From: a virus
Lineage: Duplodnaviria; Caudoviricetes
Virus record (IMG/VR): IMGVR_UViG_3300010396_000012
Location: 1-62,651 of that record
Reading direction: 5' to 3' (one strand)
Length of the DNA stretch: 62,651 bases
The position numbers were made by a program, and so were the translations under genes. The notes under the pieces were generated by a model. That model did not search any database. It had not been told where the DNA came from and worked only from the letters and a program-made list of their open reading frames with translations. Every line of letters begins with the position of its first letter. Positions within the stretch are counted from its first letter, which is position 1. Below are positions 12,493 through 50,888 of this stretch, piece after piece.

Positions 12493-12654
12493 TCTCTACA
12501 ACGCCTAGCAAATTACGGGTCAGGTTAGATCAGCGAGGTCAATTTTACAAGAGGGCCGGTAATTTTTCGAGGACACATATTTCCGCAGTAGGCGCGGATG
12601 GCTGTATTGCTGGGGTATTCAGATATGGGAGTCACAGGGTGTGCCGAACTTTCA

Positions 12655-12703
12655 GGGGTGGGGTAGTCGCGGCCTCGATCCGGGTAGGGGGTGGGGTACG
12701 GGG
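12655..12703 (+). other. G-rich tract with G-quadruplex potential; candidate packaging/terminus region
   Basis: GGGG-T-GGGG ... GGG-TA-GGGGG-T-GGGG-TAC-GGGG in the divergent gap upstream of terS. Confidence 0.45.
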
Positions 12704-12859
12704 TAGGCTCGCACATAGCAGCGCGGCACGGTTTGGTGCGCTGCAGCTTGGCAGACCGTATTAATCCCTGATATAGTTTACTGGCCGTGGTGGCAACACC
12801 CGGCAATTAAATGCCTTCACGCCATGCGGCGCGACTAAATCACTAAAGAGGATTAGACA

Positions 12860-19529: not shown

Positions 19530-19655
19530 AATCCTTTGGAGCAAACACTACTATAGGTTCCGCAGATGATGCAGGCTAGAATGTACTGCGGAGTTTGTTA
19601 ATTTGTGCGGGGCTATCACGCAACAAAAATCACAGGTTCAAACGCAACAAGGTAG

Positions 19656-19683
19656 TTGACAACTAGCAAAACCGTAGTACAAT
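19656..19683 (+). promoter_or_regulatory. sigma70-type promoter
   Basis: TTGACA-16 nt-TACAAT. Confidence 0.65.
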
Positions 19684-19724: not shown

Positions 19725-20552
19725 ATGAGCAACGTGAATGTGAAGACGATCACCATTGAAGCCAGTTCGCGCGAGGAAGCGCTGGCCGAGTTGAAGGCCA
19801 AGCTGGGCGACGAGGTTCCGGCCGACGTGCTTGAGTTCGTGGTGTCGAAGTTTGAGGAACACGCCAAGGACAAGGATCACGGCGAACTGCTGATCGACAC
19901 GAAGGCGCGCACCGTCGAGGAAATCGACATCCACGCGGAGAAGATGAACGCTATCGACAACGCCAAGCATATCGCGAACCTGCCGCCCGAGAAGCGTTTG
20001 GCGGCGATGCGTGACTACGTGCTGGAACTGGGCCGCAAGTTTGGGTTCAGCGAGCAGGAAACGCTGGACAAGGCCAACGCCACGCGTCGCAAGGTGAACA
20101 GTGCGTTTGAAGCGATGGGTGTCAAGGTGCCGGCCGGTCTGGACGGTATGTTCGATACCAACAACGTCAAGGAAGACGGCGAAAGCCACAGTGAGACCGC
20201 CGCGAAGTTCGACAATGCCATCAAGCAGATGCGCAAAGCTGGTTTCAGCGACGACGCACTGAACCATATCGGCTGGTTCTACAACGCGCAGGACGACATG
20301 GTGAACACGCTGGTCAACCTGTTCAAGGTGGGCGGGTTCGGTAGCGGCCACAACCATGTGCCGAGCGCCAAGTTGTTCCAGCAGATGGACGACTATCTCA
20401 AGTGCACGAACGAAATGGTGTACGGGTGCTGCAAGCACGCCGGGGTTGACCCGCGTGACTTTGGCTTCCTGCCGGAGTCGGAGTGGCGTTCGCGCTACAA
20501 TGACATGGCCCCTGTTCGCGAGTGCATTCAGGAGACCATCAACAACGGCTGA
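19725..20552 (+). CDS. Hypothetical protein
   Basis: 275 aa, GAGGG RBS, strong codon bias, own promoter and terminator. Confidence 0.8.
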   Translation: MSNVNVKTITIEASSREEALAELKAKLGDEVPADVLEFVVSKFEEHAKDKDHGELLIDTKARTVEEIDIHAEKMNAIDNAKHIANLPPEKRLAAMRDYVLELGRKFGFSEQETLDKANATRRKVNSAFEAMGVKVPAGLDGMFDTNNVKEDGESHSETAAKFDNAIKQMRKAGFSDDALNHIGWFYNAQDDMVNTLVNLFKVGGFGSGHNHVPSAKLFQQMDDYLKCTNEMVYGCCKHAGVDPRDFGFLPESEWRSRYNDMAPVRECIQETINNG

Positions 20553-20594: not shown

Positions 20595-20610
20595 TTGAGT
20601 CGATAATTAA

Positions 20611-20901
20611 ATGCCCTTTCGCACGCTAGGTTCAATCAACGATGTTTGGGTGTACGATAATCCCGACACTATGAAGCGTGAGTTATTCCGCAATGGGCAT
20701 TTAATTATCCACTTCCCTGAAGTAGCGTTTGAGTTTGACGGATACTATTACAAGTGGTATCCGCATGGCGAGAACAAATATATCGAGGAAATGTATATCG
20801 AGGACATGCGGGAGCTTGGGCCGTTCGATGAAGGTCATGAGTGGGGTGACCGCATTCACAAACCCTACGATCCACTGGCGACAGAACTTTGGAGTGAGTG
20901 A
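20611..20901 (+). CDS. Hypothetical protein
   Basis: 96 aa, coupled to the next gene. Confidence 0.6.
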   Translation: MPFRTLGSINDVWVYDNPDTMKRELFRNGHLIIHFPEVAFEFDGYYYKWYPHGENKYIEEMYIEDMRELGPFDEGHEWGDRIHKPYDPLATELWSE

Positions 20902-23130: not shown

Positions 23131-23161
23131 AGCAAGGGCGCATCACTGCGCCCTTGCTTTT
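23131..23161 (+). terminator. Intrinsic terminator
   Basis: AGCAAGGGCGCA-TCAC-TGCGCCCTTGCT followed by TTT. Confidence 0.8.
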
Positions 23162-23228
23162 GCCCGTTGTTGTAGTATTATCTACAAACCCATTGCGCCG
23201 CGCTCGCGGCCTGTCTAAGGTGACCCCT

Positions 23229-23582
23229 ATGAATGACGAGACCCAAGCCCCACAGAACGGCACCGAAGGCGATCCCGCGCCGACCGAGGCCCAAGGCACG
23301 ACCACGCTTGACCTGACCGCTGCAGATGCCGCACAGGGCGCTGGCTTGCCTGTTGTCGAGGTAGCTCCGGAAGCTGTCAACGAAGCCGTATCGCTGACGC
23401 ATACCGAGAGCGGGGTGGTGACGAACCTTTCCCCGACCGCAACTACCATCCCCGCAGGCGTTCATGGCGTGGTGTCGAAGCTGGAAAGCGAACTGCATGG
23501 TGAGTTCGCCAAAGGCCAGACATCTTTCCTGACGTGGATGGGCAGCATCATCGCCGAGTTCAAAGCCCATCTAAAGATGTAG
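23229..23582 (+). CDS. Hypothetical acidic protein with an amphipathic C-terminal helix
   Basis: Start refined to MNDETQ; AAGGTG RBS. Confidence 0.7.
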   Translation: MNDETQAPQNGTEGDPAPTEAQGTTTLDLTAADAAQGAGLPVVEVAPEAVNEAVSLTHTESGVVTNLSPTATTIPAGVHGVVSKLESELHGEFAKGQTSFLTWMGSIIAEFKAHLKM

Positions 23583-23603
23583 GTGGGTGCGTTGTCGCAA
23601 GAC

Positions 23604-23780
23604 CGTAGCGTCGGCGGATTACCCTGCTGACACAGGCGTTTCCTAGGTGCTGGTCAGAGCATCCGTGAGGAGACAACCGCCGACGTTACGATTTAATACT
23701 CCGCTGCACCGTCCACGATTACGTGTACTCCCCTCCCCGCGCGTAGCTATGGATGCCTTACGGCTGTAAAGGGTGCAGCG
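23604..23780 (+). ncRNA. Candidate structured non-coding RNA with two three-way-junction domains
   Basis: 14-bp stem 23604-23617/23677-23690 and 9-bp stem 23702-23710/23772-23780; G-U pairs on the + strand; complementary loops. Confidence 0.55.
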
Positions 23781-23827
23781 AACTATTAAATCGAGGGCTA
23801 TCACGATGGAAACGACTGGTCTTTAAT

Positions 23828-24070
23828 ATGCCACGCAAAGAACCACGCGACTACGAAGCCGAGTACGATCAGTACCATGGCAAGCAAGCGCAGATTGACA
23901 ACCGGAATCAGCGGAACAAGGCTGTTCGCAAGTTGAACCGCGAAGGCAAAGCCAAGTACGATGGCAAGGAAGTCGATCATAAACGTGGAGCCAAGAAAGG
24001 CGCAAAGCTTTCCAACGCAGATGCTAACTTGCGTGTGGTCAAGAAAGTCACTAACCGGAGAAAGGGATGA
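23828..24070 (+). CDS. Small HNH-like protein
   Basis: RDY..EY..YH...RN.RN and DG.EVDH...NLR.....NR motifs. Confidence 0.7.
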   Translation: MPRKEPRDYEAEYDQYHGKQAQIDNRNQRNKAVRKLNREGKAKYDGKEVDHKRGAKKGAKLSNADANLRVVKKVTNRRKG

Positions 24071-24252
24071 CGACGAAAATTAAAGTGACGATGGAAGAAT
24101 ACGCAGGGATGCCGGTGACTGTTTGTGTCAAGACGCCAGACCGTGATCTGCAGATTGTGGACACGCTGCTGGAAAAAGGCGATAGCGCTACCGTCTACGT
24201 TCACCAGAACCAAGATGTAGTGGTCGGCGAAATCAAGACGACGGCAGCGTAG
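24067..24252 (+). CDS. Hypothetical protein
   Basis: 61 aa, ATGA coupling. Confidence 0.65.
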   Translation: MTTKIKVTMEEYAGMPVTVCVKTPDRDLQIVDTLLEKGDSATVYVHQNQDVVVGEIKTTAA

Positions 24253-28918: not shown

Positions 28919-29457
28919 GTAAAGACCTTTCCATCGACATCGAGACGCTAGGCGTCAACTCCAACGCGCCGGTACTGTCCATCGGTTACTGCTGGTTCAA
29001 CTACGACAAGCCGGAGATTGAGCCGACCGGCAAAGGTCACACCGCGTTCGACATCAACGAGCAGACCCGCAAGTACGGTCGTGTGATCCACGCTGATACC
29101 GTGAAGTGGTGGTTCAACCAGTCGGACAGTGCCCGCAGCGCCGTGTTCCCAGCCAACCAGAGCAGCTTCCCCGGTTTCATTGAACGACTGACCGCCATGC
29201 TGAATGCGGCGGATCAAGTGTGGGCGAAAGGGCCGGACTTCGACTGCGTGATCTTGAAGGACTTGGTAGAAGCATGCGGTCACGACTACAAGTGGCCGTT
29301 CTGGAAGCACCGTTGCGTGCGTACGATGACCGAGTTGTTTCCGAGTATCATTACCGATGTACGTATGTCGGGTAATGCCCACAATGCGCTGGACGACGCG
29401 GTGCACCAAGCCAACCAGATTCGCGCCATCGCACAAGCACTGGGTCGAGGCGTGTAA
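28915..29457 (+). CDS. DEDDh 3'-5' exonuclease (RNase AS/exonuclease VIII-like)
   Basis: DIET, G.DFD and HNALDDA motifs. Confidence 0.88.
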   Translation: MSKDLSIDIETLGVNSNAPVLSIGYCWFNYDKPEIEPTGKGHTAFDINEQTRKYGRVIHADTVKWWFNQSDSARSAVFPANQSSFPGFIERLTAMLNAADQVWAKGPDFDCVILKDLVEACGHDYKWPFWKHRCVRTMTELFPSIITDVRMSGNAHNALDDAVHQANQIRAIAQALGRGV

Positions 29458-29507: not shown

Positions 29508-29693
29508 ATGCTTGTAATGACGCACCGACAGGGCGATAAAGTATACATCGGCAACGATGGCGAAATCGTCGTCGAGGTACTGGAAGTGCATGGTGGTAAG
29601 GTGAAGCTTGGGTTCCACGCACCCAAGGACATCCCCATTGTTCGAGACAAGGTTAAGGAGCGCGACCATGGCAATACGCCTGAAAGCAATTGA
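29508..29693 (+). CDS. csrA: Carbon storage regulator CsrA/RsmA-like RNA-binding protein
   Basis: MLVMTHRQGDKVYIG...V.VLEV.G.KVKLGF.AP.DI.I.R aligns by eye with CsrA, including the RNA-binding Arg. Confidence 0.88.
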   Translation: MLVMTHRQGDKVYIGNDGEIVVEVLEVHGGKVKLGFHAPKDIPIVRDKVKERDHGNTPESN

Positions 29694-43495: not shown

Positions 43496-43522
43496 GGCCC
43501 ACTTTCGAGTGGGCCTCTTTTT
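43496..43522. terminator. Terminator between the two convergent genome arms
   Basis: GGCCCACT-TTCG-AGTGGGCC followed by a T-rich tail on the + strand. Confidence 0.8.
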
Positions 43523-46500
43523 ATGGCATCTTGTCGGTTACAGAGTCCAGTGTACGGCGCAGCTTCGAGTCGATCTGCTTCATCTGTAGCTCACGTCCTG
43601 TAGCACTAATGAACTTGTTGGCTTGCAGTGCTTTCATTTCCTGCGCACGCTGACCCGCTGCCGACTGCAGCACACTATAAAGCTGGCGCTGTTTCTGCAT
43701 ATCCGGATCACGCGCCACGATAAGGTCGGCCTGCTGCTTGGCCTGTTCAGGCGACATACCACTACTAACCGCATGGTCTACGATAGCGTTGTAGCGCTTG
43801 TTCGCGTTGTCCAACTGGCCCAAGGTATCGTAGAGTTGGCGCTGCTGATAGAAGTCCTGATCCTTAACCAGACCCGGAATAGGCAGCGCCGTCTTGGGAG
43901 TCATGCTCTGCGACTCAAGCTGCGAAATCAGCGTGCCAGCCCACTGACCACCGTAGTTGCGCACCATGTACTGGATGTCTTCTGGATAGAAGTCGATAGT
44001 ACCGTTGGTCAAACTATTCAACCACTGCGCCTGTTCCTTGAACACATCCGGCGTACTCTTACGTCCCGAGTCGGCCGCGAAGTGGCCTTTACGAGCATCA
44101 CCATGGATAGGTACGCCCCAGTGGTTGACGTTATTAGCGATGTCTTCTAGCGGCTGCACGACCGTTGGCGTGATAGCACCTTTCGCTAATGAGCCGAGAA
44201 AACCCAGTGGTGTATGATCGACTGAGCCACCTGTCTCGATAGCGGAGTTACGCGCTACGAGCTTTGCGTAGGTGTCGGCCGCATCTTCTGGACTGACATG
44301 GCCGGCAGCGACAGCGGCCATCAAGGCACCGGGAGCCATCATGATCTGCGGCAGACCAAGACCCATCTGCCATCCGGCCACCTGATCGCCTATCGGGAAC
44401 AGTACCCGCGTAGCAATCGTTTCGGGCAGCATCTTGGCGATGTTGTCTTTACCGTCCTCGTCCTGACCCAGCATCATGCTGGATGTCATGTACCCTGCCG
44501 CACCGAGCATGCTGTAGAAGCCCATCCACTTCGCCATCTTCGGGAAGTCGTAGCCGCCCGTAGGCTTCACGAACGAGCGACGCATGGCGTCTACGCCGGT
44601 CGCCGCGACGCGGAAGAACGCTTTATAGGCATTGATACGACGACCCTGTACACCGGATTCGCCGTAGTCAAGTACGCGTCGTGCTTCGGCCGCCGCATCG
44701 CGTTCGTCAATACCTTGCTCCACCAACGTACGGAAAGCAGCCACACGAGGAATCTGCGTTACGAAGTCTGCGTAACGATTCGTGTATTTAAGTACCGTGT
44801 TCCAACCTAGCTTGGTCGCATCCCACACACCATCGGCACTACGCGGGATATTGTTGAAACCACCTGTGCCGAGTCGATCCTGAATATCGTTGGTATTAAA
44901 TCCACCGACAAACTCATTGTTACCGCCGAGGCGCATATAGCGCAGCGTCCACGCGGCCCAGCTATTGGGGTCGGCCTTCGCCATCCGTTCCAGTGCCAAG
45001 TGATCGCTTTTCAGGGCCGGCGCAATCTGACGCAACGCGGCAACTGACTTGAGCGCATTCACGCCGTAGCGGGCAAAGAACGGCACCGCTTCCAGTGGAT
45101 TGTCGAAACGTGTGGTCGCCAAGACAGCAGGTACGTACGTCATGTCACGAGCATACGCCGTGAACGTCTGCCACACCGGAGACAATGTGGTCTGGATACG
45201 TGCAATGGCGTTGGTCACTTTACCGACTTGCCGCCCCAGCGGATCGGGTGCAGCGATGTTATTCATCTTCCACAAACCACGCGCCATCTGCGAGTCTTTC
45301 GGGAAGGTAATGACGTAATGCGTACGCCCATCGTGCACCAACACTTGGTTCGGTTCCATCTTCAAGCGTGCGGTGTATTCGCCTGTACTGGCGTTCTTGT
45401 ACCCATCGTGCGGCGTACCCTCCCACGTCTCGATGTCAGCCCCGAGTGCCTTGCGCGCTTTCTTATCGGACACGAGATTATAGAGTGCATCGCCGAGAGT
45501 AGCGTTGGCGTGAGCATTACCTGCCTGCGCCGTGTCAGCATACAGACGGAAGACTGGCGACTCCGAAAAGGTGCTACGTCCCTGCATTGCAGCCATGGTC
45601 GAATTAAGTTTCGCCAACGACAAGTTGCCGTTTTGTGCGATACCCCAAAACGGCGTGTCGGTTTTCTTGGCCGACTTGAGCGGCACGTACCACTTCCACC
45701 CGTAAAGCTTCACCCACGGATCGTCCTTCGACACGACACCGGCGTCCTGCAAACGCTGTGTCTGGCGCTGGCGTGCGCCTTCCATGACCTTATTCAACTC
45801 GGCCATAGAGTTCTGATCCATGCCGTGCTTGAGTTTCAGTTCGTTGAGTTTCTTGTTGATTACATCTATGGGAACATTGTGGTTACGGCCCCACTGCTCC
45901 CAGCCATACTTCATGTCCGACTTCATGGTTTCAAGTTGCTTAGCCGCTACGGCCGGATCGACTTTCAAGTTCTGCACATCATCCAGCAATTTAGCGCGCT
46001 GGATTTCCATGGCAGCCGACTTCATCGGAGCCTGCATCAGCCACGCAGTACGTACACGTTCCAGCCAGTGCGTGTTCTGGAAAAACATATTGATGTTACG
46101 CAGTGAATCATCCATCGTGTTGCCGAAGCGCTGGAAGTTTTTGTTCACCCAATCATGGAATGGCTTGAATACGTCGTAGCTATCCGTCATGTTGTATTCG
46201 GAACGCAGGCCACGCGTACGCGAGATAGCGTAGTCCACGTTGTTGTCGGCGGTAATCTTGACACCAAGACGGCGTAGCCCTTGGAGCGCCATTTCGACGC
46301 CCACATGGGCATTCATTCCTTGTTCGACAACGTGGTTGACGACGCCACTGAACCCACGGGTTTCGGCACTGTTATCGTGTACTGGTTGCGCTTGCGCTTC
46401 CTCGTTGTCATCGCCTTCATCGTCTTCATGAAGTGCGTCATGCAGTTCATCGTTGACTTCACCCTTCCCACGAGGCGATGAAAGCATGCGTTCATTGTAG

Positions 46501-49500
46501 TCTTCCCCCGGCGACTTGAGGATGGCGTCAAGGGCACGGCTTACTTTGTGGTTGCTGTCCAAGCCCAGCATCGACTTGATATGCTGGAAGAATCCACCTA
46601 GCCATTGCTTGATGCGATCTGCTTTTCCATTCTTTACCCAACGATTGTTCAGCAAGTCCGTCGATTCGACGGCCCAGTATTCACTAGGGTTCTTGTACTT
46701 ATAGAACTCGTCGTACGGCAGCTTCTTGCTTGTACGCATGAGTAACGACATTTCCTTCTCTGCTTCTAGCGAAGGATGCGCGTAGTTTTCGATGGCAAGC
46801 TGTATGAACCGCTCACCATCCTTGTTCCCATTCTTGATAACCTGCTTGAGTTTGTTCTGCAGACGCCCGATATATTCATTACGAATATCGTTCTGCATGT
46901 CTTCCGGCATTAGTTGTTCTGCACTGTGCATAATTTCATGCACGGCAGTACCGGGATTTGTTGCTGTGGAATTAATATGGAACAGACGCTGCGACGGGCT
47001 GAATCGTCCACCCGGCCCTTTCTCGCCAAGATCGTGGATGCGTACGGCAAGATAATTCGCAAGGTTTGGATTCTTATCCAGCAGCCATTGCGCGAACTTG
47101 CCAGCTTCATAGTGATCGCTGCCGGGTTCATGCGACGCAATCATTTCCTGCAGACGCTGGCGTACGTATTCTACACCACGACGCGGCTTACGGCCCATGT
47201 CGCGCAGCGCACGCTCCATCTTGGCGGCTTCCATGTCGTCATGAAGCTTCTGCAGTTCCGCACCCGTCTCGTGAATATCTGCGCCTTCACGAACACGGTT
47301 AATGATTTCACCGACACGGCGCTTGGTTTGAACAGGGGCAATCTTATCGACTTCCTTTTCGGTACCGACCGTCGAGGCATGCCGCTCGTCGGCCATCTGC
47401 TCAAGATCATCCATGTGCAGCGTGTATTCGCCGTGTGGGCCGAAGTTACTTTCCTCGTGCCCACTCGTCTGCGCGCCTTCATGCACTTGGTCGAGTTCAT
47501 CCTTGGCGCGATTTAATTTACCAGCAGCGGTGTCACCTGTCAGATCGTCGCCGTGGGACATCACTGTCCAATCGTCTTTGCCTACTCCACGCTGTACGAC
47601 CACTTCGCCGGGTCGAGCGTGGGTATCAACGGCATCGACGCCACTGAGCGGTTCAACACTTCCATCGCGGCGGATAATAGCTCGTGTTTGCCCAGCGGCG
47701 CGTTCGTCGCGCAAACGATTCTGTGCTTCGAGACTAGCGGATGACTCCCCACTGGCGTTGTTCTGGTGGTATTCGTCATTAAGGTAGTCATCGTTCGGCT
47801 CGCTTTCATTGGCGCGTGCTTCGGCTACGTCTTCCTTGAGCGACGCGGGAGTACGCTTGAGCGGCTTGGTGGCTTTCGCCATCGTCGGCGTCTTAGCCTG
47901 TTGGCGAAGCCACTTCACGTCATCATTGGTAAGATCACCTGTCTGCTTCCACCCGTCCAGTAGATCGCCCAAGTCATGACTGTCGCCCATACGTGCAGTG
48001 GCGACGGCATCGTGAATCTGGTCAATCGTATGCTGAGGCAGCGTATCCGCAAAACGGTCACGAAGCTGTTGGTCAAGCTCCGTTACGGCTGCCCCCGTAT
48101 TAGCTACGGGGGCTTCGCTTTTTGGGGGCTTTGCGGCCCCTCCTTTCAGCGGCTTGGGTTTAGCTACGGGCGCAGCGGGTGCCGGTTCAGGCGGCGGAGC
48201 GGCTGCCTTTTTCAAACCTTTAGGTTTCGTAACAGGAGTCGTGACCTGTTGGTTTGCCTTCTCTGCGATGTCACGCTCGTTCTTGAGGAATGCCCCAAGC
48301 TGTTCCGGCGTCGAAATACGACCATCCTGAATAGCCGTCTTTACCGCGAGGAAGTGCGGATCGGATCGGAAAGCATCCTCGCCTGCACCCCCGGACACGC
48401 CAGCATTCATCGCTGCCTGCATGTACTGTTCATTGTACTTCTGCTCGGCATTCTTGCGTACGCGTGCCTTTAGCTTGTTGGTTGCGGTCGGCGCAGTGCC
48501 CTGCGGTGCAAGAGCTTCCGTTACCGTGCTGGCGACGTTATCGTGATCCTGCGCTTGTTCGGCATTAGTTTTCGGTACTGGCGCTGCGGCAGGCGTAGGA
48601 GCCGGCGCGGGGGCTGCAGCTTCCGGAGCTTTCGGTGTAACTTTATTCCCCGGCGCCGCTTTGCTGGTTGCCAATCCCGTAAGTAGCTTTTGTACATCGG
48701 CTTCGGAACTCACATTACCCTGTTGCACCAAGCGCATGACCGCCTTACCCAGCGGCGACTCATGCAACTGCGGGTTCTGCACATCGCCCGTCGCTACGCC
48801 ATAGAGCATCTTGGCCTGCGTCGGAATGTCAGTACCATCCAACACGCCAGCCGTGACCGACTGGATCGTAGCGTTCGGCGTAGGCGCTTGTGCAGCGGTA
48901 CCGGGAACCTGCTGCCCACTAATATCCGAAGGAAGTGGCTGCTCACCACCCGTCGGGCCGGCTGCGGCCGGTGTGGGTTGCGCTGCAGGTTGTGCACTAG
49001 GCGGCGTAGTTTCTGCCGCTGCTGCAGCCGGAGTTTCGGCCGGTTTGCCAAACTGCTGTATCGTCTGGTCAATCGCCCCTGCATCCAGCTTCGGATTACG
49101 CTTGGTCAGATACGTCGCGGCTTCTTCTATAGCGAACTGACGCTGCTCTGCCGACATCGCGTTCCATTCTTCATCCGGAACAAAGTGACGAGCAAGCTGC
49201 ACCGCTCCATCGACGGCCGATTCAGGCGTCGTGGCGTACTTGACAATGGCTTGTACCGTACGGCTACGGCCTTGACCATTCAACTCCTTGGTAAACTCCT
49301 TCATGGAGTTAGCGTGCTGCTCGGCCGTCATGCCCGTAGCATGCGCATTCGTATTCACTGCAGCGTTGTACTGTGCGGCAATGTTTCCATCGTTGCCTGC
49401 AGCCGGAGCCGTACCTGCCGGGATCATGGCAATGTGCCCATCAGGCATCCGCACTACCGTCGATCCATCGACCTGCGTACCCAGCACTTCGGCACCTTCC

Positions 49501-50888
49501 GGAATCGGCGACGCACCCGCACCGGGCGGCGGCGGGTTACCTGACCCATCGGTCGGCGCTTCGGTAGATACGGCTTCGGGCGGCGGTGTCTTACCCACTT
49601 GGCTACGACGCTTGAGAGGATTCTTGGAATTGATCGCTTCCTTGTTACCGCCCAAGATACCCAACAATGCACCCATCAAGCCTTGCTGCAGTACACTTTC
49701 CCCACTGAACTGGTTTGAGTTATTCAGCCCTTGATCGACAAGCTGCTGGCCGGTTGCCATACCGGCGTTGACTGCGCCAGCCTGACCTATACGCTTCAAA
49801 AGCTTAGCCCCCGGCGTATGCACGGGAGCGACATTCAACAACGTACCAATAGCGGAGTCAGCAACACCTTGGCGAAGTACCGCATCGGAATCCTGACCGG
49901 CATTCATCTGGTCGGCCACGTTGCCCGTGGTGTTGGCGAGTGCCGTTGCACCGCCCGCTGCCAGTAGCGGAATGTCCGCGCCGCCCGTCGCCAGCGTGGC
50001 CGCCGCGACCGGGATGGCTCCTACCCCGGCCTGACCCAGCAATGCGCCGCCACGGTTCGTCTGCTGCGCCTGAGCGAGGTCTTGGTTGCCTTCCGCCGCC
50101 ATGGTCGAAGCGCCGCCATTGGCCGCGTCGAAGTTCTTGCCGAGCGTGTTCTGCAGCACCGCATACTGCGGATCGTTGTAGTTGTGCCCAAGCATCATCT
50201 GCAAGAACTGTTCGCGATCCTGTCCTGCCTGATTGCGGCCGTGAACAATGTTTCCGTTACCTTGGCGCATCAGCGAGTCACCGAAGTCGCCACCGACGAC
50301 ACGGTTGCCTAGTGCACCCAAAAACGCCAGTGCACCACCACCTAGCTTCTGTGCTTCACCCGCTGCACCCTCCCCGAGCGCTTTACCAAAGCCCGAGTAC
50401 CAGTGACTGTTGTCGGCTTGGTCGCCCGGAAACAGGCGGTCACCCAACTGGCGTGCACGCAGTTCGTATTCAGCTTGGTACGCCTTCAACTGCTGCGGTT
50501 TGATTTTCGGAATCGCCGTGATGCTTGGGTCTACGAATTGCGTCTTGTAATCCAGCGAAAACTGGTCGTAGTCCTGCCGAGTCGGCGGGCGGCCTAGTCC
50601 ACTAGAATACTGCTGCCATGCCACCGGCAGAGGAACAGGAGCACTTGGCTGTGTCGGCTGTTGCTGTGGCGAAGGCATGCCCCCCATACCACCACTGGGC
50701 GATGGTACGGCATTCTGTGAAAAGGTCGGCAAAGGCTGTGCGGGTGCCATCTGTGTCGCCGGCCCTTGCAGCACACGAGGGTCTTGCAGCGGTGCGGGCT
50801 GCGAAGGTGGCAGATTGTAGAGATTAGGCGGGATAGGCTGTGGCCCGCTAGTCTGCGGCAGCGAATAAGCCTGAGTTCCGAGTGCCAT
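43521..50888 (-). CDS. Giant internal virion/ejection protein (polyvalent type) with a zincin motif and LPD38-like C-terminus
   Basis: 2455 aa; HEIMH plus a downstream E.WA; C-terminal QP..D...N....G.PI pattern; last gene of the structural arm. Confidence 0.75.
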   Translation of the reverse strand: MALGTQAYSLPQTSGPQPIPPNLYNLPPSQPAPLQDPRVLQGPATQMAPAQPLPTFSQNAVPSPSGGMGGMPSPQQQPTQPSAPVPLPVAWQQYSSGLGRPPTRQDYDQFSLDYKTQFVDPSITAIPKIKPQQLKAYQAEYELRARQLGDRLFPGDQADNSHWYSGFGKALGEGAAGEAQKLGGGALAFLGALGNRVVGGDFGDSLMRQGNGNIVHGRNQAGQDREQFLQMMLGHNYNDPQYAVLQNTLGKNFDAANGGASTMAAEGNQDLAQAQQTNRGGALLGQAGVGAIPVAAATLATGGADIPLLAAGGATALANTTGNVADQMNAGQDSDAVLRQGVADSAIGTLLNVAPVHTPGAKLLKRIGQAGAVNAGMATGQQLVDQGLNNSNQFSGESVLQQGLMGALLGILGGNKEAINSKNPLKRRSQVGKTPPPEAVSTEAPTDGSGNPPPPGAGASPIPEGAEVLGTQVDGSTVVRMPDGHIAMIPAGTAPAAGNDGNIAAQYNAAVNTNAHATGMTAEQHANSMKEFTKELNGQGRSRTVQAIVKYATTPESAVDGAVQLARHFVPDEEWNAMSAEQRQFAIEEAATYLTKRNPKLDAGAIDQTIQQFGKPAETPAAAAAETTPPSAQPAAQPTPAAAGPTGGEQPLPSDISGQQVPGTAAQAPTPNATIQSVTAGVLDGTDIPTQAKMLYGVATGDVQNPQLHESPLGKAVMRLVQQGNVSSEADVQKLLTGLATSKAAPGNKVTPKAPEAAAPAPAPTPAAAPVPKTNAEQAQDHDNVASTVTEALAPQGTAPTATNKLKARVRKNAEQKYNEQYMQAAMNAGVSGGAGEDAFRSDPHFLAVKTAIQDGRISTPEQLGAFLKNERDIAEKANQQVTTPVTKPKGLKKAAAPPPEPAPAAPVAKPKPLKGGAAKPPKSEAPVANTGAAVTELDQQLRDRFADTLPQHTIDQIHDAVATARMGDSHDLGDLLDGWKQTGDLTNDDVKWLRQQAKTPTMAKATKPLKRTPASLKEDVAEARANESEPNDDYLNDEYHQNNASGESSASLEAQNRLRDERAAGQTRAIIRRDGSVEPLSGVDAVDTHARPGEVVVQRGVGKDDWTVMSHGDDLTGDTAAGKLNRAKDELDQVHEGAQTSGHEESNFGPHGEYTLHMDDLEQMADERHASTVGTEKEVDKIAPVQTKRRVGEIINRVREGADIHETGAELQKLHDDMEAAKMERALRDMGRKPRRGVEYVRQRLQEMIASHEPGSDHYEAGKFAQWLLDKNPNLANYLAVRIHDLGEKGPGGRFSPSQRLFHINSTATNPGTAVHEIMHSAEQLMPEDMQNDIRNEYIGRLQNKLKQVIKNGNKDGERFIQLAIENYAHPSLEAEKEMSLLMRTSKKLPYDEFYKYKNPSEYWAVESTDLLNNRWVKNGKADRIKQWLGGFFQHIKSMLGLDSNHKVSRALDAILKSPGEDYNERMLSSPRGKGEVNDELHDALHEDDEGDDNEEAQAQPVHDNSAETRGFSGVVNHVVEQGMNAHVGVEMALQGLRRLGVKITADNNVDYAISRTRGLRSEYNMTDSYDVFKPFHDWVNKNFQRFGNTMDDSLRNINMFFQNTHWLERVRTAWLMQAPMKSAAMEIQRAKLLDDVQNLKVDPAVAAKQLETMKSDMKYGWEQWGRNHNVPIDVINKKLNELKLKHGMDQNSMAELNKVMEGARQRQTQRLQDAGVVSKDDPWVKLYGWKWYVPLKSAKKTDTPFWGIAQNGNLSLAKLNSTMAAMQGRSTFSESPVFRLYADTAQAGNAHANATLGDALYNLVSDKKARKALGADIETWEGTPHDGYKNASTGEYTARLKMEPNQVLVHDGRTHYVITFPKDSQMARGLWKMNNIAAPDPLGRQVGKVTNAIARIQTTLSPVWQTFTAYARDMTYVPAVLATTRFDNPLEAVPFFARYGVNALKSVAALRQIAPALKSDHLALERMAKADPNSWAAWTLRYMRLGGNNEFVGGFNTNDIQDRLGTGGFNNIPRSADGVWDATKLGWNTVLKYTNRYADFVTQIPRVAAFRTLVEQGIDERDAAAEARRVLDYGESGVQGRRINAYKAFFRVAATGVDAMRRSFVKPTGGYDFPKMAKWMGFYSMLGAAGYMTSSMMLGQDEDGKDNIAKMLPETIATRVLFPIGDQVAGWQMGLGLPQIMMAPGALMAAVAAGHVSPEDAADTYAKLVARNSAIETGGSVDHTPLGFLGSLAKGAITPTVVQPLEDIANNVNHWGVPIHGDARKGHFAADSGRKSTPDVFKEQAQWLNSLTNGTIDFYPEDIQYMVRNYGGQWAGTLISQLESQSMTPKTALPIPGLVKDQDFYQQRQLYDTLGQLDNANKRYNAIVDHAVSSGMSPEQAKQQADLIVARDPDMQKQRQLYSVLQSAAGQRAQEMKALQANKFISATGRELQMKQIDSKLRRTLDSVTDKMP

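Follow-up and report, generated by a model that had tools for sequence, protein, structure and literature searches.

Can a phage message carry, between two of its genes, an RNA that acts on ribosome-binding sites elsewhere? The question is raised by a short stretch in an uncultured soil phage, where positions 23702-23780 can fold into a hairpin with a C-rich, anti-Shine-Dalgarno-like loop. A first-pass annotation took this hairpin for the second domain of an RNA region and proposed that it represses the translation of host or phage mRNAs in trans. Together with a GGA-containing RNA beside it and a phage-encoded CsrA, it was thought to be part of an investment in translational control. Regulatory RNAs of lytic phages are few and come mostly from model phages. 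The locus was followed up by computation. The window is the whole stretch of DNA that was analyzed, a complete phage record of 62,651 bp with direct terminal repeats.

Genomic setting

A DNA similarity search with 23400-24100 gave no match among cultured phages, and the genome has no close relative there. The portal and adaptor proteins resemble the SU10 type, and the encoded proteins include a family A DNA polymerase, a DUF927 primase-helicase, a ligase, ThyX and a MazG-like pyrophosphatase. Genes on the plus strand occupy about 12.8-43.5 kb. On the minus strand, a protein of 2455 aa is encoded at 43521-50888, and its residues 1705-2422 are about 22% identical to a Stx-converting/Shigella phage protein annotated as LPD5-domain-containing.

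The C-loop element is hosted by an intergenic gap of 245 nt (23583-23827) between two plus-strand genes. The upstream gene (23229-23582) encodes 117 aa and belongs to no family; a homologue lies at the equivalent place in the relative L029, and the search of viral contigs with the protein returned no relative. The downstream gene (23828-24070) encodes an 80-aa basic protein of phrog_4590, whose homologues are annotated as HNH endonuclease in a few deposited phage records. This small protein has no Pfam match and no solved relative in the PDB (best E 0.25), and it found no match in bacterial genome contigs, hence no clue to the host. A longer open reading frame, 23753-24070, runs through the element and was rejected as an unconserved N-terminal extension, the protein starting with MPRKEPR in four relatives.

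No sigma-70-like promoter or terminator-like site was found within 23583-23827. The 3' flank of domain 2 reads AACUAUUAAAUCGAGGG, and nowhere in the gap is a GC-rich hairpin followed by the U tract of an intrinsic terminator. The element, then, does not appear to be a stand-alone gene with a promoter and terminator of its own. Upstream of the gene at 23229, an inverted-repeat search gave a perfect 12-bp hairpin (23131-23158), after which a promoter-like TTGCCC..TATTAT can be read by eye. Since the gap lacks such signals and a promoter-like site lies upstream, domain 2 is most simply part of a longer message that starts near 23170 and runs into the next genes. This means that it would need processing to become a small RNA.

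The possibility that TTAATT followed by GGGGCTATCAC is a phage promoter was considered and dropped, as the spacing varies from 1 to 7 nt, no RNA polymerase or sigma factor was seen among the 63 proteins scanned and AATTAA-type words are not concentrated at gene starts in the window. Elsewhere in the window, a near-consensus sigma-70 promoter (TTGACA-16-TACAAT, 19656-19683) lies upstream of the gene at 19725. The longest inverted repeat, with 22-nt arms 72 nt apart (20598-20713), spans the start of the open reading frame at 20611, and the 11-mer AATTAAATGCC is present at both 12805-12815 and 20605-20615.

Known RNA classes were searched for throughout. Rfam gave no match at gathering score across the window, and at E values up to 10 the four matches within 23400-24000 were all to irrelevant families. 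In 17 related loci, Rfam recovered tRNAs only. ARAGORN found no tRNA or tmRNA gene in the window; in relatives, one to six tRNA genes lie 2-3 kb downstream of the same gene (L002, 5302-5939; L104, 5435-6196; L029, 5447-6213; L003, 5062-5134; L028, 5449-5520).

Fold of domain 2

The stems named in the first-pass annotation were all found within 23702-23780, as was the 12-nt loop, and the fold it had drawn is both the minimum free energy and the centroid structure in ViennaRNA (79 nt, -32.3 kcal/mol, z -3.48, with none of 200 dinucleotide shuffles as stable). On the plus strand, the closing stem P1 pairs CGCTGCACC (23702-23710) with GGTGCAGCG (23772-23780) and encloses P2, in which GTCCA (23711-23715) pairs with TGGAT (23750-23754). 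Above it, P3 joins TTACGTGT (23719-23726) to GCGCGTAG (23739-23746) through a helix that includes three U.G pairs. P3 is topped by the apical loop at 23727-23738 (ACTCCCCTCCCC in DNA, ACUCCCCUCCCC in RNA), which contains both UCCCCU and CCUCC. The one part of the earlier drawing that stood only as an alternative is the small TTAC/GTAA hairpin: it can form, but the program favors GCC(UUAC)GGC at 23755-23764, and the two are mutually exclusive.

The structure also reaches further out than had been described. Across a 3x3 internal loop, a 9-bp AU-rich helix, P0, pairs GATTTAATA (23690-23698) with TATTAAATC (23784-23792), which extends domain 2 to 103 nt (23690-23792) and gives it a basal helix of 18 bp interrupted by that internal loop. 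The arms form a 22-nt inverted repeat, the second longest among 41 pairs in the window. When the entire gap was folded (248 nt), the z score was -3.79.

Folded as the reverse strand, the 79 nt form a different and less distinctive structure that lacks the loop hairpin (z -2.00, matched in stability by 9 of 200 shuffles). Over the full 103 nt, the minus strand even has a small energetic advantage (-43.9 kcal/mol, compared with -39.5 for the plus strand). Total energy therefore does not decide the strand, which is assigned from gene direction and from the three U.G pairs in the loop hairpin. As far as structure prediction goes, domain 2 is a real structured RNA cassette that folds independently, on the plus strand, in an intercistronic position.

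Close variants and the neighboring domain

DNA contigs with 90-99% matches to the window came from three other soil runs. Compared with the window, these variants differ at 20 of about 400 positions in the upstream gene and at 12 of 246 in the downstream gene, and at 0 of 106 across 23688-23793. The lack of any change over these 106 nt hints at selection on domain 2 but does not prove it, since nearly the same invariance is seen in the final 138 nt of the upstream gene (one change and one insertion).

The neighboring cassette, domain 1 (23605-23689, plus strand), has a 13-bp basal helix and a folding energy of -42.6 kcal/mol. In all three variant contigs that cover the site, its positions 23607-23687 are swapped for 41 other letters between identical flanks. 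Such a clean replacement means that cassettes are exchanged as units and that domain 1 is dispensable in close variants. This domain is the "GGA RNA" that the first-pass annotation had grouped with the C-rich loop and CsrA. Its AGGAG stretch is paired, and the other GGA has just its A unpaired, in an internal loop, so that neither is placed in a hairpin loop. As the GGA sites are largely paired and the cassette is replaced in near-identical variants, a concerted two-domain device is not supported.

A family of cassettes in related phages

Relatives were gathered by searching with the downstream protein and with the adjacent motif, and the resulting set of eight non-redundant loci draws on three further complete genomes (G001-G003, 62-63 kb) as well as on several contigs from metagenomes. 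Every one of the eight has between one and three cassettes with strong folds in the equivalent position, but of differing sequence. The cassettes mostly open with TTAAT and close with ATTAA, and in G002 three of them stand head to tail, linked by AATTAATT. Fifteen cassettes were folded, and ten have basal helices of 18, 43, 24, 29, 15, 25, 28, 20, 20 and 19 bp; those of the other five measure 13, 13, 8, 7 and 6 bp. The plus strand folds better in 12 of the 15, with a tie in one and the reverse in two.

Alignment with MAFFT and RNAalifold was possible at the basal helix only, and the inner hairpins draw no support from covariation. For four cassettes, RNAalifold kept 13 basal pairs, four of them with both sides changed. 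As an example, an A-U pair of P1 in the window is a G-C pair in L002, within the shared stem CGCUGC(A/G)CC. Domain 2 belongs to a clade-specific set of swappable long-stem cassettes.

Other ways of finding homologues were less useful. The closing-stem pattern proved a poorly chosen query: it gave at least 119 stretches in viral contigs, none of the 80 listed had a C-run and a TTAA flank, and the eight matches that were inspected, taken from contigs of similar length, were rejected as chance palindromes in GC-rich DNA. Local folding across whole genomes was too noisy in GC-rich coding sequence to delimit cassettes, and an ORF-based list of intergenic gaps was crude and unreliable. In a group of distant marine and freshwater sequences, very stable RNAs lie about 330 nt upstream of the homologous small gene (L031, L032, L082 and L092; also L068 and L076). 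They have long G-runs paired to C/U-runs, and none is in Rfam.

The C-rich loop motif

Conservation and single-strandedness of the loop had been set beforehand as the refutation test. UCCCCU was found in five of the eight loci, and all six copies are predicted to be unpaired, so neither of these two conditions refuted the proposal. The six copies of TCCCCT lie within 1538 nt, the summed length of the eight gaps; dinucleotide shuffling gave 0.27 copies on average and at most 3 (none of 5000 shuffles reached 6), an enrichment of about 20-fold. The reverse complement occurs once in the same gaps, compared with six times for the motif itself. The probability of being unpaired is mostly 0.68-1.0 in the six copies, against regional means of 0.26-0.35, with one flanking U paired in two copies; in the window, it is 0.99-1.0 over 23729-23734. 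Five of the six lie in apical loops, and the exact anti-Shine-Dalgarno core CCUCC, read by eye, is present in three (the window and copies a and b of G002).

A 62-kb genome strand has two to nine copies of TCCCCT. In G002, the only two plus-strand copies in 62 kb both fall in two tandem cassettes. The motif is absent from three of the eight loci, namely L104 (the locus of G003), L024 and L030, of which L030 is cut by the contig end. The complete genome of G003 has no such loop anywhere outside coding sequence. The recurrence of the loop in related phages suggests that it probably matters, which in part supports the first-pass interpretation.

The start-region motif and a short reading frame

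Directly after domain 2, a G-rich start-region motif, GAGGGCTATCACG, occupies 23793-23805 on the plus strand and is followed immediately by an ATG. A GGGGCTATCA(CG)-type motif comes after the cassettes in seven of the eight loci, with GAGGG in the window and L028, and an ATG abuts it in five (the window, L002, L104, L003 and L028). In L024, a further small gene lies between the cassettes and the motif, and the cassettes end at a related TAGGGGA.

The ATG of the window opens a mini-ORF at 23806-23826 (six codons, M E T T G L, and a stop) that ends 1 nt before the next ATG. The gene starting there, at 23828, has no Shine-Dalgarno sequence of its own. Comparable short ORFs of 7 and 26 codons are found in L024 and L028, respectively, and in the variant X8 deletions totaling 14 nt fall in 23794-23827, in the mini-ORF stretch. 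In all three (the window, L024 and L028), the short ORF stops at the ATG of the following gene, from which we infer that the motif is the true ribosome entry site. The stop codon 1 nt before the next ATG suggests translational coupling.

A 12-nt form of the motif, GGGGCTATCACG, has a second copy in the window after a hairpin at 19541-19620 and also occurs in leaders of G001-G003 (L144, L147 and L146). The shorter pattern RGGGCTATCA is found two to four times per genome, 11 times in four genomes, always on the gene strand, and 0 times in the reversed-pattern control. Four of the 11 copies are coding, and two of the seven non-coding ones have no nearby ATG. In G001 (L147), the GGGGCT of the motif is paired with an AGCCCC further upstream, which comes right after a TTGACA..TACAAT promoter.

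Possible targets of the loop

At -8 kcal/mol or better, the loop is predicted to pair with 17 of 72 phage start regions, compared with 204 of 2000 coding windows. At the same cut-off, a 16S-like anti-Shine-Dalgarno string pairs with 10 of the 72 and the reversed loop with 16. Since the reversed loop does about as well as the loop itself, the predicted affinity for start regions is generic, about as good as that of the 16S-like string. No specific target stands out when the loops of G000, G001 and G002 are searched against their own genomes.

The best plus-strand partner in the window lies at 12651-12705 (-18.5 to -23.1 kcal/mol, with U.U mismatches), close in energy to the next matches. G-rich stretches of the divergent control region gave the strongest pairing; the one in G002 reaches -31.2 kcal/mol but is on the opposite strand. 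A G-rich control-region element was considered as a conserved target of the loop and rejected, because the elements differ between genomes. The stretch at 12651-12705 has at least four G-tracts with short spacers, is G-quadruplex-like and lies between the leftward and rightward gene blocks. At the equivalent place, G001, G002 and G003 have different G-rich or G/C-run elements, that of G002 on the other strand.

Closer to home, the loop could pair with the adjacent GAGGG/GGGG motif by 4-5 bp only. Such pairing in cis is sterically unlikely on the predicted structure, since only 1 nt separates the Shine-Dalgarno sequence from the base of the roughly 31-bp helix stack.

Proposed mechanism and alternatives

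The account that we favor, at a probability of roughly 40%, is that domain 2 is a co-transcribed cassette that is excised by an RNase III-type nuclease and whose loop then pairs with G-rich ribosome-binding sequences. The domain would be transcribed within a polycistronic phage message, just before the start region of the gene for the small basic protein. Its long basal helix (18 bp with the 3x3 internal loop) would be cut by an RNase III-type nuclease specific for double strands; cleavage would separate the two cistrons, and the upper part would come free as an RNA about 80-100 nt long. The apical hairpin would then present its anti-Shine-Dalgarno-like UCCCCU/CCUCC to G-rich ribosome-binding sequences of the phage or the host, and pairing would lower translation of the bound messages. 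Excision is proposed because long helices suit such a nuclease and because T7-type phages use sites of this kind. Processing alone leaves the recurring exposed C-run without an explanation, and pairing with ribosome-binding sequences may be its likeliest role, by analogy with RsaE, 6C, AbcR and CcsR.

A possible, if doubtful, alternative is that the element works only in cis: the helix would serve processing and protect 3' ends while framing ribosome entry, and the C-run would be a landing site for a protein or the 30S subunit (e.g., S1 at a pyrimidine-rich standby site). The position of the cassettes, always just upstream of the same gene, fits this, as do the motif that follows them in 7/8 loci, the ATG abutting it in 5/8 and the short ORFs that point to real ribosome entry there. 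A second copy of the motif follows another hairpin (19541-19620), long basal helices are commoner among the cassettes than the C-run, and stable stems could shield the phage's messages from its own Rv2179c-like 3'-5' exoribonuclease. What a role in stability or processing does not explain is the 20-fold enrichment of the hexamer in exposed loops. Moreover, in G002 a third cassette separates the C-loop cassettes from the start codon, which is 150-250 nt away, and direct pairing of the loop with the Shine-Dalgarno sequence is sterically unlikely. An unlikely reading places the signal in the DNA: the cassettes would serve for recombination or as palindromes that bind protein, bounded by TTAAT/ATTAA and comparable to the mobile promoter-stem-loop cassettes of T4-type phages, with the RNA fold as a by-product. 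It would account for the clean replacement of domain 1 in 3/3 variant contigs, for relatives that differ in cassettes and cassette number at the same site and for AATT-type palindromes shared by the boundaries. Against it, 12/15 cassettes are more stable as plus-strand RNA, G.U pairs, summed over the per-cassette counts, number 44 on that strand vs 26, the loop hairpin of domain 2 relies on three U.G pairs and the motif is strand-specific (6 vs 1). In addition, AATTAA/TTAATT is not concentrated at gene boundaries in the window.

Rho binds C-rich unpaired RNA, and the exposed C-rich, G-poor patch fits that preference; the element also lies about 450 nt downstream of the probable promoter read by eye, just after the first gene of the transcription unit. 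It could therefore be an antitermination or Rho-modulating RNA that acts on RNA polymerase or Rho in an early operon. We regard this as highly improbable, since the exposed C-run of 5-12 nt is far shorter than a Rho loading site, Rfam gave no boxA/boxB-like or put-like match and basal helices of 15-43 bp would be left unexplained. Least credible of all is a chance palindrome without function. High-GC coding sequence in the window does yield many strong local folds as well, but this one is non-coding, has a z score of -3.48 and forms the second longest of 41 inverted repeats, and analogous cassettes with an enriched motif are present in 8/8 related loci.

The excised, base-pairing cassette may also be seen in the light of the other genes of the phage. 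The presence of CsrA, noted earlier for the window (29508-29663), extends to all four complete genomes, and the gene for the Rv2179c-like 3'-5' exoribonuclease (28924-29430) lies directly upstream of the CsrA gene. Judged by its gene content, the phage does invest in RNA-level control. A bolder proposal, and a long shot, is that exchangeable early-operon cassettes are cut by host RNase III and that some mimic the anti-Shine-Dalgarno sequence to mask G-rich sites at large; with CsrA and the exoribonuclease, they would make up a three-part take-over of host translation at the RNA level.

Comparison with known systems

An uncultured clade shows a recurrent RNA design, a long and possibly excisable stem with an anti-Shine-Dalgarno-like loop. 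The design adjoins the conserved motif of the start region, and the same genomes have genes for CsrA and an exoribonuclease. If ribosome-binding sites are masked by the loop, these phages would use the trick of RsaE- and 6C-type small RNAs in the form of swappable cassettes. If it does not, the cassettes would still show cleanly how structured RNA between genes is exchanged in modules, and they would offer, outside mycobacteriophages, a parallel to the SAS/ESAS elements.

Base-pairing small RNAs with C-rich, anti-Shine-Dalgarno loops include RsaE/RoxS, 6C/B11, AbcR1 and the CcsR or "cuckoo" RNAs. Like these, the cassettes expose a cytosine run of the UCCC/CCUCC type atop a stable hairpin and keep this motif while the remaining RNA drifts, and one relative has two such hairpins in tandem, as CcsR and 6C do. 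Unlike them, the cassette is phage-encoded, lies within an operon, is raised on a basal helix of at least about 20 bp, has no Rfam match and lacks a promoter and terminator of its own.

In T7-type phages, RNase III processing sites are found between early genes. The cassettes resemble these sites in lying between co-directional cistrons, just upstream of the next ribosome-binding site, and in their irregular helix, about two turns long and interrupted by an internal loop (15-43 bp in 10 of 15 cassettes). They differ in their large branched upper domains of 60-90 nt and in the recurring C-rich loop. T4-type phages carry mobile promoter-stem-loop cassettes (PeSL), which are likewise short structured intergenic modules of the early region that are swapped between close relatives. 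However, neither domain 2 nor its immediate flanks yielded a promoter, and the stems here are much longer.

The start-region motif has its own parallel in the SAS and ESAS elements of Cluster K mycobacteriophages. SAS is a conserved G-rich motif of 12-13 nt near ATG starts, in one orientation, in the non-structural half of the genome; its copies are partly preceded by imperfect inverted repeats (ESAS), and an RNA or protein ligand was proposed (PMC3203893). The motif described here is also G-rich, lies on the gene strand only and, in part of its copies, is near an ATG or has inverted repeats upstream. It differs from SAS in consensus (GGGGCTATCACG here vs GGGATAGGAGCCC in SAS) and in number (2 non-coding copies in the window and 1-3 in relatives vs 11-19), and it differs from ESAS in that the inverted repeats are mutually unrelated and enclose 40-90 nt, compared with 4-13 nt in the mycobacteriophages (PMC3203893).
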